Shown in pieces: positions 25,957-49,079 of a stretch of 64,000 nucleotides of DNA. The notes below the pieces were generated by a model. The model did no database searches and was not told where the DNA came from. It saw nothing but the letters and a program-made list of their open reading frames with translations. The first letter of the stretch is position 1; each line of letters opens with the position of its first letter. The stretch comes from a virus (lineage: Duplodnaviria > Caudoviricetes), in the IMG/VR virus record IMGVR_UViG_3300032007_000010. One strand, given 5' to 3'. A program made the translations under genes and the position numbers.

Positions 25957-26670
25957 TTGATTCAGAATCAACCAAATCCCAATACCATATCAGAGCTCCA
26001 GGCTGAGATCAACTACTGGAAAAGGCGGTATGAGGAGAAAACTTTTGACTTTTCTGGGGCCACCGCAACACCGGACGATATTCTCCAGGGGGTTAAGGCT
26101 TGGGATGCCACCGGCACACTGATCACTGGCACTTATGTGTTTCCTGGTGAATATGGTTCTCCCGAGATTGCTGGTACTCTCACAAAGGGCTCATACGTCA
26201 GGTTCGATGGGTTGGATTGGATTATCGCCAAGGTGAACGGTTCCACCTACACACTCATGCTGAAGAAGATGACGGAGACGACGCAGTTTGGCTCGTCGAT
26301 CTACTACAGTGGTTCGACAATCGCATCCAAGTGCACGACCTTCCAGGGTACCATGTCTGCCGAGGCGCTGTCGGTCGTCAACTCCAAGACCGTACAATCT
26401 GTCACGGCCAAAGTGTGGATTGCCCAGAAGACCGACATCGAATCCTGGACTGTCAGCAGCGAACCGTCTTCGTCAGATTGGTCTGGTATTCGCAAATGGA
26501 CCGCCAACGATGGCATCTACGATTCGGTCGGAGCTACCAACTACTGGTGCTCGAATACGAACGACTCCAGTTATGTCTGGATCGTCACTTCCGACGGCTA
26601 CTTCTACGGCCGCAATAGTCCGAGTAAGACGTATGGTTTCCGACCCTGCATCGAAGTCACTCAATCCTGA
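25957..26670 (+). CDS. DGR-target-type receptor-binding domain protein
   Basis: Paralog of 25229; TTG start with aaaggagg RBS. Confidence 0.8.
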   Translation: MIQNQPNPNTISELQAEINYWKRRYEEKTFDFSGATATPDDILQGVKAWDATGTLITGTYVFPGEYGSPEIAGTLTKGSYVRFDGLDWIIAKVNGSTYTLMLKKMTETTQFGSSIYYSGSTIASKCTTFQGTMSAEALSVVNSKTVQSVTAKVWIAQKTDIESWTVSSEPSSSDWSGIRKWTANDGIYDSVGATNYWCSNTNDSSYVWIVTSDGYFYGRNSPSKTYGFRPCIEVTQS

Positions 26671-26749
26671 TCATAGATAACAGCCCCGCCTCCATCAAGG
26701 GGCGGGGCACCCATCGTTTCAAAATCAATCAATAAAGGAGGAATTTCAC

Positions 26750-28075
26750 ATGGGAATCGTATCGGGCTTCGGAGCAAATCCCGGCATCGGAGCCGTGATT
26801 GATCTTAGGAAGAAGGTTGAACTCTGCCCGAGCATCATCGTGAATGTGCCCACCGGCAGCACGGTATCCTGCACGAAGGGTACGATCAGTCTCACCGCAC
26901 TGTCCATCGATGTTGGAGCGGAGACGGATACCCATACCTTCCAACCCACCGAGGAGGGAACCTGGACGCTGAGAGCCACGCTCGGTGAGGACGAGAGTGA
27001 AACCGAGGTGTTGGTCGAGAAGACCAACTACGAAGAGGATCTCGAATACTTCACCAATCCCATCGAGGGAAATGTTGTGCCCGGTCAGGTTGTCACCTTT
27101 GACAACAAGAGCTGGATTGTCCAGCACGTGGATGGAAACATTGCCTATTTGGCATCCAACGGGATTCTGTCCACGGGTGCGTTCAACAGCAACAGCAGAA
27201 ACGCGTACCTTGGCTCGGATCTAGCAGCCAAAGCTGCTGACTACCAAACAAACAACATGAGTGCCAAAGCGCTCAAATATTGTCAGGATGTTACCGTCAA
27301 CGGAGTTACCAGCAAGGTCTTCATTCCCTCTAAAGCTCAGTATGAATCCGAATGGAGCTGGCCGTCTGCCTCGGCGGACAACCGCAAGCAGACCGGCGGC
27401 AACAGCTGGTATTGGACCTCTTCGCCGTATCCCAACGACTCCAGCAATGTGTGGTTCGTGGATGGCAACTTCAACAGCATCATCGCCAACTATGCCGATG
27501 GCGGTTTCCGGCCCGCGGTGGCCGTGAAGTTCCGCAAGGAGATCGGAGACGGTGAATATGGTTCTTCCAAGATCGCCGGCACTCTGGAGAAGGGTCAATT
27601 CGTCAAATTTGATGGGCAGGATTGGATCGTTGCCAATGTATCTGGTTCAACCTATACGTTGATGTTGAAGAAGATGACGGAGACCACTGCATTTGGATCC
27701 AGCACAACATACTCTGGCAGCACCATCGCATCCAAGTGCACGACCTTCCAGAACGCGATGTCGGCCAATGCACTGTCAGTGGTCAACTCGAAGACGGTCC
27801 AGAGCTTCACCGCCAAGGTATGGATTGCAACAAAATCCGACATCGAATCCTGGACCGATACTGCTAATCCGACCAGTTCTGCCTGGTCTGGTATCAGAAA
27901 ATGGTCTGGAACCACTGAAGATGACTATGCCGTGTCGGGTATCTATACCTATTGGTGCTCTGATCTGGACGGTTCCAGCTTTGTCTGGGAGGCCGAGAAT
28001 CAAGGTAATTTCGGCAGCAGCGCTCCGGCTGCTGTGTTTGGCTTCCGTCCCTGTATCGAAGTCACCCAAAGCTAA
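26750..28075 (+). CDS. Tandem two-domain DGR-target protein with an internal TR-matched VR
   Basis: Domain 1 ends GGFRPAVAVKF (paralog of the 47565 gene); domain 2 ends GFRPCIEV (paralog of 25229). Confidence 0.85.
   Translation: MGIVSGFGANPGIGAVIDLRKKVELCPSIIVNVPTGSTVSCTKGTISLTALSIDVGAETDTHTFQPTEEGTWTLRATLGEDESETEVLVEKTNYEEDLEYFTNPIEGNVVPGQVVTFDNKSWIVQHVDGNIAYLASNGILSTGAFNSNSRNAYLGSDLAAKAADYQTNNMSAKALKYCQDVTVNGVTSKVFIPSKAQYESEWSWPSASADNRKQTGGNSWYWTSSPYPNDSSNVWFVDGNFNSIIANYADGGFRPAVAVKFRKEIGDGEYGSSKIAGTLEKGQFVKFDGQDWIVANVSGSTYTLMLKKMTETTAFGSSTTYSGSTIASKCTTFQNAMSANALSVVNSKTVQSFTAKVWIATKSDIESWTDTANPTSSAWSGIRKWSGTTEDDYAVSGIYTYWCSDLDGSSFVWEAENQGNFGSSAPAAVFGFRPCIEVTQS
27421..27515 (+). repeat. 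DGR variable repeat VR2 (remote, internal)
   Basis: Matches the reverse complement of TR 46493-46593 with 11 substitutions, all at TR adenines, plus an in-frame 6-nt deletion. Confidence 0.9.
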
Positions 28076-28093: not shown

Positions 28094-29146
28094 ATGGCGT
28101 TTCTGTCTCTCGGTGTTCTCAATCGGAACAAACCAAACATCAGGGATGTCCTCCTGCACAAACCCTCAACATCGTCCCAGCTCGTATATACCGGGGAGTC
28201 GCTCTCCCCGGTCTGGGACAACTATGATCCGGACAAACTCACCATCTCCGGGGATCTCTCCGGGATCAACGCTGGTACCTATACCACGACATTCACTCCG
28301 AAGCTCGGAGTATTCTGGGAGGATGGGACAAGTAACCCGTACAATGTTGGCTGGAGCATCGGCAAGGCCACACCCACCGCAAGCATCGACAAGAGTACCG
28401 TGACCCTGGATGCGAGCAAGACCTCCGACACAATCACGGTGACCACGAATTCGGATGGTGCGGTCAGTGCAAGCAGTGACAACACCGGAGTTGCCACGAC
28501 CAGCGTATCCGGAAAGGTTGTGACCGTTTCTTCGGTCAACGATACCACCGGCAGCGCCAATGTCAGCATCGGTGTCGGTGCCGGAAATAATTACATCGCC
28601 TATCCGAGCGTCATGAGCGTGGCGGTCACCACCAGCTTCTTTGTCAATCCGCTCAACAAGGATACCATGACACTTGGGGATGAAACCGTTTACTTCACCG
28701 CCTATCCGTCCATTACCTGGCAGGTACAGCATCTGGATGGGAATTATGCCTATCTGGCGTTGTATCCGATAACTGAACGGAGTGTATTTGGTTCCAGTAC
28801 AACCTATTCCGGATCCACCATTGCACAGAAGTGCACAGACTATCTGAATAACACCATACCCAATGTTGCTGACTATCTGGAAGAGGTCACTGTGAACGGT
28901 GTCACTGCTAAGGTCTTCATTCCTTCTAAAGCTATGTATCAGACCGAGTGGAATTGGCCGAAGACCAGCGCTTCCAATCGTAGTTGCATGATAAACGGTG
29001 CCTATATAGCATATTGTACATCTACTGCGGCCGACTCCGGCAGTGTGTGGAGCGTGAGTGGCGATGGCAACTTCTACAGCGGCTACGGCCCGTCGGCTGC
29101 GTTCGGCTTCCGTCCAGCGGTTAAAGTTAAATATAAAGCTTTGTAA
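28094..29146 (+). CDS. Ig-like repeat plus DGR-target-type domain protein
   Basis: Shares YTG...P.W.NYD..KLTISGD and Ig-like segments with the 47565 gene; ends GFRPAVKVKY. Confidence 0.8.
   Translation: MAFLSLGVLNRNKPNIRDVLLHKPSTSSQLVYTGESLSPVWDNYDPDKLTISGDLSGINAGTYTTTFTPKLGVFWEDGTSNPYNVGWSIGKATPTASIDKSTVTLDASKTSDTITVTTNSDGAVSASSDNTGVATTSVSGKVVTVSSVNDTTGSANVSIGVGAGNNYIAYPSVMSVAVTTSFFVNPLNKDTMTLGDETVYFTAYPSITWQVQHLDGNYAYLALYPITERSVFGSSTTYSGSTIAQKCTDYLNNTIPNVADYLEEVTVNGVTAKVFIPSKAMYQTEWNWPKTSASNRSCMINGAYIAYCTSTAADSGSVWSVSGDGNFYSGYGPSAAFGFRPAVKVKYKAL
29030..29086 (+). repeat. Partial VR: 57-nt core differing from TR only at adenines
   Basis: gcc gac tcc ggc agt gtg tgg agc gtg agt ggc gat ggc aac ttc tac agc ggc tac versus TR aac aac tcc aac aat gtg tgg aac gtg aat aac gat ggc aac ttc aac aac aac aac; flanks differ at non-A sites. 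Confidence 0.7.
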
Positions 29147-46492: not shown

Positions 46493-46593
46493 CGGGCCGG
46501 AAACCGCCATTGGTATTGTTGGCGTTGTTGTTGTTGAAGTTGCCATCGTTATTCACGTTCCACACATTGTTGGAGTTGTTGGGATTCGGCGAA
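46493..46593 (-). ncRNA. DGR template repeat (TR)
   Basis: Non-coding, AAC/AAT-rich (reads SPNPNNSNNVWNVNNDGNFNNNNANNTNGGFRP); matches two VRs except at adenines. Confidence 0.95.
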
Positions 46594-47374: not shown

Positions 47375-47404
47375 GCTCCCGGGGTGATACAACACCCCGG
47401 GAGC
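47375..47404. terminator. Strong hairpin between target gene and avd promoter
   Basis: gctcccggggtg-atacaa-caccccgggagc. Confidence 0.65.
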
Positions 47405-47564: not shown

Positions 47565-49079
47565 TCACGCCTGGAACTGTACTTTAACTGCGGGCCGGAA
47601 ACCGCCATTGGTATCGTTGGCGCTGAAGTAGCTGCCGAAGCTGCCATCGTAACGCACGCCCCACACAACGCTGGAGTTGCCGGGATCCGGCGTAGAGGTC
47701 CAGTACCAGCTGTTGCCGCCGGTCTGCTTGCGGTTGTCCGCAGACGCTTTTGGCCAATCCCAATCAGACTCGTACTGTGCCTTAGACGGGATGAAAACCT
47801 TGCTGGTACCACCATTGACCGTCACAGACTGGCAGTACGACATAGCTTCGCTACCGAGCGTCGTCTCATAGTTAGCGCAGGTTGTCTTGAGGATATCGGA
47901 ATTCGCGTAAACATTGCTGTTAGACGACGCAAATGCTCCGGTAGAAACGATACCATTCGACGCCAGATATGCATATTTACCGTCAACATGCTGGACGATC
48001 CAGCTCTTGCCCGCAAAGGTGACCGTAGAACCAGCAGATACCGTGCCACTGATCGGATTCACGAAGAAGCTGGCGGTGACCGAGCACGTCTTGCTTGCAG
48101 CGGTGTAGTTACCGCCGCTGGCTGTCACTGTGATCGTGGCAGTACCAGTTGTATCGTTCACGCTGCTCACCGTCACCGTGGAACCGCTGCGGCTCACTGT
48201 GACCACGCTGGTATTGTCGGAGCTGACGCTCAGCGTACCATCGTAGTTGCCGCTGATGGTGAAGGTGGTGGACTTGGTGGTGCTGTTCAGCGTGATGCTG
48301 GTCTTGCTGAGCGACATGGTGTTGGCCGCCTTGCTGATGGTGACAGTGCACTTCTTCGCCGCCGCAACCGCGGTCCAGTTTCCGTTGGTCGCATCAGCAT
48401 CCACGCGGCAATAGATGTCGTAGGAACCGGCATTGATCGCGCTGGGCAGGCTGCTGACATAGGCGCTGGAAGCCGGTGCGGAAGAACCGGCCGTGACCGC
48501 CGCGTAGAGCAGCGTACCAAAGGTGGTGGAGCCGGCATTGACCAGGGTCTGCGAAGATCCTGTGTAGGTGAGGGTCTTCGCCGTGGGAGCCGTGATGGTC
48601 GGGGTCGCCGGATTGAGCGTCCAGGTCTTGTAGACGATGCGACGATCCAGCGTGGATGCCCAGACGTATCCCTTCTTGGGTGTGAAGCCCACGGTGTAGG
48701 TACCCTGGTTGGTGGCGCTGGTGTCGCCGGAGATGGTGAGCTTGGTGGAATCGTAGTTGTTCCAGCTCGGGCTCCGGCTGGAGCCGTTGTAGGTCGGATT
48801 GCTCGCCACGGACGGCTCGACATCGATCTCCTCATTGGCAGCGGAGGTCGCCACCTCGTATGGGAGGTTGTTGATGCCAATGAAGACCTTGCTGGTACCC
48901 ACCAGGATCTTGCCCGAAGCGAGGGTCTCGGGGGCATCGTCGGTGACCTGCACCTCGGGCAGACTACCCTCAACCGTGGTGCCGTCCGGGCGCAGCACCA
49001 GGCTGCTGTCCGTCTCGAAGTGCACCGTATCATAGCTCGAGCCGTTGTAGCGATGCAGCCTCTGTTTCAGAGTTGCCAT
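47565..49079 (-). CDS. DGR target: tail-fibre/receptor-binding protein with Ig-like repeats and C-terminal CLec-like domain
   Basis: Start MATLKQRLHRYNG after ggagg RBS; VR at the 3' end. Confidence 0.9.
   Translation of the reverse strand: MATLKQRLHRYNGSSYDTVHFETDSSLVLRPDGTTVEGSLPEVQVTDDAPETLASGKILVGTSKVFIGINNLPYEVATSAANEEIDVEPSVASNPTYNGSSRSPSWNNYDSTKLTISGDTSATNQGTYTVGFTPKKGYVWASTLDRRIVYKTWTLNPATPTITAPTAKTLTYTGSSQTLVNAGSTTFGTLLYAAVTAGSSAPASSAYVSSLPSAINAGSYDIYCRVDADATNGNWTAVAAAKKCTVTISKAANTMSLSKTSITLNSTTKSTTFTISGNYDGTLSVSSDNTSVVTVSRSGSTVTVSSVNDTTGTATITVTASGGNYTAASKTCSVTASFFVNPISGTVSAGSTVTFAGKSWIVQHVDGKYAYLASNGIVSTGAFASSNSNVYANSDILKTTCANYETTLGSEAMSYCQSVTVNGGTSKVFIPSKAQYESDWDWPKASADNRKQTGGNSWYWTSTPDPGNSSVVWGVRYDGSFGSYFSANDTNGGFRPAVKVQFQA
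47591..47692 (-). repeat. DGR variable repeat VR1
   Basis: About 18-19 substitutions versus TR, all at adenines, plus one extra NNC codon in the AAC run. Confidence 0.95.

Follow-up and report, generated by a model that had tools for sequence, protein, structure and literature searches.

A remote, mid-gene variable repeat is probably a trans target of a phage DGR 19 kb away

Introduction

Variable repeats (VRs) written by DGRs generally obey a C-terminal rule, for which a rationale based on cis elements has been given (Roux et al., 2021, PMC8144416). In the 64,000-nt stretch of DNA analyzed here (the window), a repeat matched to the template repeat (TR), termed VR2, is located in the middle of an open reading frame and far from the cassette. 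The question raised by this locus is whether VR2 is reached by retrohoming in trans into an internal site, or whether it is a VR that was frozen by gene fusion. Both readings were offered in the original prediction, the former together with a bivalent protein displaying two variable surfaces. Here, the match between VR2 and TR, the silent sites of the paralogous domains, the predicted fold of the target protein, the origin of the internal position and the variation of VR2 among alleles were analyzed.

Genome context and DGR cassette

The window is a portion of an uncultured jumbo phage of about 288 kb. It is identical over 10.7 kb to a 287,669-nt ENA contig (L004), and matches of phage type comprise a helicase, HNH and decoration/tail proteins. 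The features of the cassette and of the remote array are listed in Table 1. The reverse transcriptase (RT) matched RVT_1 and phrog_1423, the latter at E 3.5e-91, and carries both the DGR motif-4 signature IGFQTSQ ([I/L]GxxxSQ) and the catalytic YMDD (YxDD). The closest solved structure was 8ub7 (E 1.4e-28), which we take to be the BPP-1 bRT complex. For the 190-aa ORF at the Avd position, sequence searches of Pfam, PHROG, NCBIfam and PDB returned no match.

Relatives were sought in several collections. Megablast against the phage GenBank collection, with the cassette and with the VR2 gene cluster, gave no match; metagenome DNA scans for the VR/TR pattern and for the VR2 junction gave 0 matches each, and scans of IMG/VR returned nothing, or unrelated single matches only. 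The syntenic relative used below is a 169.7-kb ENA contig (L005), whose flanks are 95-96% identical to the window and whose allele is also present in a Logan assembly (L006).

Three structured segments were observed near the features of interest. Directly 3' of the TR on the minus strand, the segment 46400-46492 contains a 12-bp stem and folds as DNA at -21.7 kcal/mol (z -3.55), with no shuffle folding equally well; this segment probably corresponds to the structured spacer RNA from which cDNA synthesis is primed. Strong G+C-rich terminator-like hairpins are located at 26675-26720, 3' of the 237-aa gene and directly 5' of the ribosome-binding site of the VR2 gene, and at 47376-47404, about 190 nt 3' of VR1 in the gap separating the target gene from the Avd-position ORF.

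Table 1. Positions of the DGR cassette, the remote repeat and neighboring genes in the window.
Feature	Position	Strand	Remarks
VR2, remote variable repeat	27421..27515	+	matched to TR; encodes residues ~225-255 of the 441-aa protein
VR2 gene, 441 aa (P0001)	26750..28075	+	ORF; low-confidence N-terminal ~100 aa, domain A (with VR2), linker, domain B
Linker and domain B block, 534 nt (178 codons)	27534..28067	+	missing from syntenic relative L005
Imperfect 13-bp hairpin at VR2 3' end	27501..27535	+	not in VR1; significance doubtful
Template repeat TR	46493..46593	-	AAC/AAT-rich, 34 A in 101 nt
VR1, cis variable repeat, 3' end of cassette target gene	47591..47692	-	one codon longer than TR
Cassette target gene, 504 aa (P0076)	47565..49079	-	bears VR1
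Avd-position accessory ORF, 190 aa	46703..47275	-	without family match
DGR reverse transcriptase, 493 aa	44805..46286	-	IGFQTSQ and YMDD motifs
Stand-alone paralogue of domain B, 237 aa, ends GFRPCIEVTQS	25957..26670	+	
Next gene, 350 aa, type-A-like C-terminal domain	28094..29146	+	VR-like part differs from TR at many non-A sites

Match between VR2 and TR

The entire window was compared with itself by BLAST, the matches being filtered by mismatch spectrum for adenine bias, and local alignment was applied as well. It was found by the filtered self-BLAST that the TR has exactly two adenine-biased partners in the window, VR1 and VR2. Every mismatch is located at a TR adenine, 18/18 for VR1 and 11/11 for VR2, the latter with P ~6e-6 given a TR that is 34% A. 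At the non-A positions VR2 is identical to the TR throughout (65/65), and 11 of the 30 aligned A positions are changed, six as A>T and five as A>G. A single in-frame gap of 6 nt removes two Asn codons and can be read in two equivalent ways, as the loss of AATAAC or as the loss of AACGAT combined with an A>G change. VR2 is in frame with its ORF and is followed by 186 further codons with no stop. Under the definition of a remote target given by Roux et al. (2021, PMC8144416), namely a VR off the cassette with a full-length TR match and at least 75% A bias, VR2 is a remote target, displaying 100% A bias at a distance of 18,978 nt from the TR on the opposite strand. Local alignment and self-BLAST therefore bear out, in coordinates and in description, the 95-nt match originally predicted at 27421-27515 with 11 adenine-only substitutions and a 6-nt in-frame deletion; its placement 19 kb off on the other strand, with a second target domain in frame behind, is likewise correct in distance, strand and frame.

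The 3' ends of the repeats were also compared. The last 16-19 nt, rich in G+C, are common to VR1, VR2 and TR, and the match of both VRs to the TR stops at the same base: they end in ...GGTTTCCGGCCCG followed by C, and 5' homology to the TR is kept in both. Between VR1 and VR2, no common cis element was found beyond this G+C-rich end. It had been predicted that VR2 is followed by neither a stop nor an obvious hairpin. The former part stands, while the latter does not, since an imperfect 13-bp hairpin (27501-27535) overlaps the 3' end of VR2. The enclosing region of 105 nt folds no better than shuffles (z -0.39), and the hairpin is absent at VR1 and partly kept in L005. A downstream hairpin serving both VRs as a cis element is not supported: the VR2 hairpin has no counterpart at VR1.

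Silent sites and paralogous domains

The lectin domains bearing VR1 and VR2 are old paralogues. Third-codon identity between them is 102/221 (46%) upstream of the repeat, 32/32 inside it and 2/6 downstream. This switch in silent sites at the VR borders implies that VR1 and VR2 were held identical to one TR at these sites while their scaffolds diverged. As far as the sequences allow a judgment, repeated copying from one template would be the only explanation that accounts for both the block of silent-site identity and the differences confined to adenines.

Plain paralogy, or gene conversion at the DNA level between lectin-domain genes, would produce a resemblance between VR2 and TR with no retrohoming at VR2, and the region does contain a mosaic array of such paralogues in which recombination is evident. 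However, VR1 as a donor cannot supply adenines in the TR state at positions where VR1 itself is mutated, and the TR as a DNA donor would leave an exact copy. The exclusive adenine bias (11/11, P ~6e-6) together with the abrupt change in silent-site identity at either border of the VR is the signature of a DGR. Moreover, the remaining paralogous domains, at the ends of 25957-26670 and 28094-29146 and in domain B, display many non-adenine differences from the TR. As a source of VR2, paralogy or conversion is effectively refuted by the mismatch spectrum, and its probability is very small.

A further paralogue was observed in the remote array of the syntenic relative. The C-terminal domain of a 298-aa gene (L005:4263-5159, P0010) is 85% identical in DNA to the cassette target domain of the window, VR1 included, and has several non-adenine differences from the TR of the window. 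This similarity indicates an exchange of lectin modules between cassette and remote array.

Fold and architecture of the target protein

A model of the 441-aa protein was built with AF2 from 71 homologues. It contains two confident domains, located at residues ~101-263 (A) and ~278-441 (B) and both with pLDDT>90, and in this model both fold as C-type-lectin-like domains. When the domains were compared with solved structures by VIA-align, domain A matched 9qa6 (Z 14.6) and numerous CTLDs (Z ~7), and domain B matched the C-terminal domain of Legionella Lcl (Z 9.8), TvpA (2y3c; Z 8.8), which is a DGR target, and Mtd (1yu0; Z 5.6). Foldseek with the whole model returned weak CTLD matches only, while VIA-align resolved both domains; DUF6273 matched the VR2 protein weakly. 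VR2 encodes the variable, presumably ligand-binding loops of the first lectin-like domain in a putative virion adhesin of 441 aa. A related metagenomic protein of 488 aa (P0012) contains two tandem lectin domains of the GFRP(A/E)VKV type, both type-A-like, indicating that the tandem lectin architecture recurs in the protein family.

Domain B belongs to a separate VR class, ending GFRPCIEV. This class is an orphan with two local copies, at 27940-28060 and 26540-26660. The homologues of domain B are hypervariable directly before GFRPC, as expected of a DGR target class, and this position of the variable loop would suit a true double-variable protein, with domain B diversified as well through a second TR beyond the 64-kb window or an additional cassette. 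Three observations oppose such a protein. The filtered self-BLAST recovered no TR for domain B within the window. The VR-like codons of domain B include GAG, CAA, CTG and GTG, whose third-base A or G cannot be reached from AAY by adenine changes. Finally, no homogenisation was found between domain B and its 237-aa paralogue, third-position identity being 26/45 in the VR-like part vs 64/128 upstream. With no TR in the window and no homogenisation, two DGR-variable surfaces are therefore unsupported, and a doubly diversified protein is improbable. The bivalent protein of the original prediction is retained in its two lectin folds, as obtained by AF2 and VIA-align, and loses the DGR variability of its second surface. 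Judged by template, codons and silent sites, the internal domain A appears to be the only one programmable by the DGR seen in the window, and domain B would not be programmable by the TR of the window.

Origin of the internal position

VR2 owes its internal position solely to a further lectin-like domain, of another VR class, that is joined in frame to its 3' side. The ortholog in L005 has 263 aa and is without domain B, and its VR is located 26 nt from the stop, i.e. at the 3' end of the gene. The alignment with L005 breaks off at window 27533 (L005 6784) and continues from window 28066 (L005 6783), so that the window has exactly 534 nt (178 codons) over L005, representing the linker and domain B. 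The fusion junction is exact and located at a CC/CCAA microhomology. Domain B ends in TQS-stop, as does the stand-alone paralogue, and the L005 gene ends in FQS-stop from the same downstream bases. From these shared endings, one microhomology deletion in the L005 lineage is the simplest history. The junction sequence thus suggests that the unfused form of L005 would be the derived one, generated by a single microhomology deletion of domain B, with an insertion as the alternative. The fused or unfused state is polymorphic among related phages.

These data bear on the second reading, in which VR2 is a fossil. It would have been written when it was located at the gene 3' end, the cis elements 3' of it would then have been lost or buried by the in-frame fusion of domain B, and the repeat would have been frozen since. 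The unfused ortholog has the canonical 3'-terminal layout that such a history starts from, cis elements have been argued to favor C-terminal VRs (Roux et al., 2021, PMC8144416), and the hairpin at VR2 is not common to VR1. However, a junction that points to the unfused form as derived by deletion counts against it, as do the internal VRs diversified naturally in Thiohalocapsa (PMC10907252).

Variation of VR2 among alleles

In the 90% cluster of the L005 protein, a third allele was found (P0074, 443 aa, Logan), and it shares the fused state of the window allele (P0001). The two fused alleles were compared as proteins. Scaffold A differs at 7/224 residues and the junction from GFRP to the linker at 3/29, while VR2 differs at 11/26 aligned residues and by four residues of length. 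The domain B scaffold differs at 42/116 residues, indicating a recombined allele. A near-identical scaffold and junction accompanied by a very different VR2 imply that VR2 was diversified while internal, although recombination instead of in-situ homing could in principle also produce the difference in P0074. Across P0001, P0074 and P0002, all variable VR2 residues lie on A-containing codons of the TR, and the A-free codons are all invariant; VR2 is hypervariable among alleles of which two are fused. The cis target behaves likewise, P0076 and P0008 having 5 scaffold residue differences and quite different VR1 sequences.

A marker of a different kind, at a non-adenine site of the TR, is provided by base 27422 at the 5' edge of VR2. 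Both the TR and the window's VR2 have T here (TCG, Ser), and VR1 and both VRs of L005 have A (ACG, Thr). At the protein level, TSSP is present only in the VR2 protein of the window, and TSTP in all six other proteins. The presence of the TR base in the VR2 of the window only indicates, on a marker that is a single base only, that a TR-derived tract was written in after the split from the fused P0074 lineage. The VR2 protein is carried by two near-identical contigs of ~288 kb and the VR1 protein by three, with the same proteins in each, and these sister contigs are therefore uninformative on activity. P0071 and P0072 differ only at the start-codon residue as given.

On these grounds the fossil reading is disfavored and considered unlikely. 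A repeat frozen by the fusion is difficult to reconcile with two fused alleles that have a common junction and very different VR2 sequences, with the TR-specific base found only in the VR2 of the window, or with 0/65 non-adenine differences and 32/32 identical silent sites in a repeat whose flanking silent sites are ~50% diverged between the paralogues. On the other side, the 6-nt deletion relative to the TR persists unrepaired in VR2, which full-length homing from the present TR would restore, and VR2 has fewer altered adenines (11/30) than VR1, with its 18 mismatches; both points count against present activity and are in keeping with a fossil. Of the two alternatives originally proposed, trans retrohoming into an internal site is the better supported, by the lack of non-adenine drift, the rise in silent-site identity from 46% to 100%, and the divergence of VR2 in P0074.

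Proposed mechanism and length variation

Taken at the level of the sequences, VR2 is probably a genuine trans target of the single DGR visible in the window. In the proposed process, the minus-strand cassette, comprising the RT, the TR, the Avd-position ORF and the VR1 target gene, would produce adenine-mutagenised cDNA from the TR. This cDNA would then replace both VR1 beside the cassette and VR2, 19 kb off and inverted. We infer that cDNA retrohoming is the mechanism, that homing continued past the fusion, and that it continues today.

The repeats also differ in length. Compared with the TR, VR1 is longer by 3 nt owing to one additional AAC-derived codon in the AAC run, which contains five codons in VR1 and four in both TR and VR2, and VR2 is shorter by 6 nt at AAT-AAC. 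Among seven related proteins, the loop from TS[ST]P to GGFRP ranges from 28 to 32 residues. This spread in loop length suggests changes in the length of the TR, or slippage during homing. A more ambitious proposal is tentative: active retrohoming in trans may reach the internal VR2, whose recognition signal would be contained wholly in coding sequence, such that no intergenic hairpin is needed, and in-frame length variants may arise by slippage of the RT on the AAT/AAC runs of the TR. If true, such slippage would account for the changes of +3 and -6 nt and for the loops of 28-32 residues, and DGRs would explore loop length besides sequence.

The locus represents a clean natural phage case of DGR writing at a site where the downstream flank is constrained coding sequence. 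It bears on the minimal cis information required per target, and hence on the retargeting of DGRs for directed evolution. It also indicates how arrays of target genes evolve: lectin modules are fused or deleted beside a VR that is presumably live. The value of the system is that of a well-resolved case and of a candidate for the study of minimal target requirements and possible length variation, with nothing new in principle.

Comparison with known systems

Multi-VR DGRs have been known since 2012 (PMC3521204), and the layout found here, a remote, inverted and mid-gene target, is uncommon yet already published in its elements: tandem VR-bearing lectin domains, trans targets and non-C-terminal VRs. 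A mid-gene VR as such is not without precedent (PMC10907252, PMC10743442). Within its own group, the distant relatives L001 and L002, phages of 256-260 kb with an RT that is 47% identical, have one VR each and no remote copy, which makes the remote target a feature of the lineage of the window phage; on VR2 itself these relatives are uninformative.

The closest parallel in target architecture is provided by DGR 4/5 of Thiohalocapsa PB-PSB1, in which single targets contain three tandem VR-bearing CLec domains, diversified in trans and with unequal VR activity as determined from reads (Dore et al., PNAS 2024, PMC10907252). In both systems an internal VR is followed in frame by a CLec domain and the targets are located away from the RT and TR; the difference in activity among the VRs of PB-PSB1, and targets shaped by domain shuffling, are counted as further likenesses. 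However, PB-PSB1 is cellular, its targets being sensors of conflict systems, and its tandem domains are homotypic and each matched by a TR, whereas the present protein belongs to a phage and its domains are heterotypic, the internal one only being TR-matched. Thus, with respect to the tandem multi-VR CLec type, two CLec domains are present, at residues 103-262 and 278-438, and the window provides a TR match for one of them rather than for each. Diversification in PB-PSB1 was established from metagenomic reads, and here it is deduced from allele comparison alone.

Among phages, nd4/nd12 and FP_Mushu/FP_Brigit from the gut (tentaclins, Hoc-like; PMC10743442) likewise combine a phage DGR with two target genes, one VR of which is not 3'-terminal. 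In those phages an N-terminal CLec domain is followed by Ig-like domains and both targets are located in a compact cassette, whereas here the second target lies inverted at a distance of 19 kb and its VR is followed by another CLec domain. Bordetella phage BPP-1, with Mtd, bRT, Avd, the IMH and a downstream hairpin, resembles the present system in an RT of the same clade, adenine-specific transfer from TR to VR, a target of CLec fold and a G+C-rich 3' end of the VR. It differs in having a single C-terminal VR and an intergenic hairpin; the present phage has a second VR that is remote and internal, no common hairpin, a 190-aa ORF without family match at the Avd position, and differences in length between VR and TR. 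Finally, the DGRs of Treponema denticola, Legionella and cyanobacteria (PMC4891356, PMC7517822, PMC3521204) also employ one TR for several VRs in paralogous genes, some of them remote. Those DGRs reside in bacterial chromosomes and have C-terminal VRs, whereas the setting here is a jumbo phage of ~288 kb with an array of shuffled lectin-domain genes.
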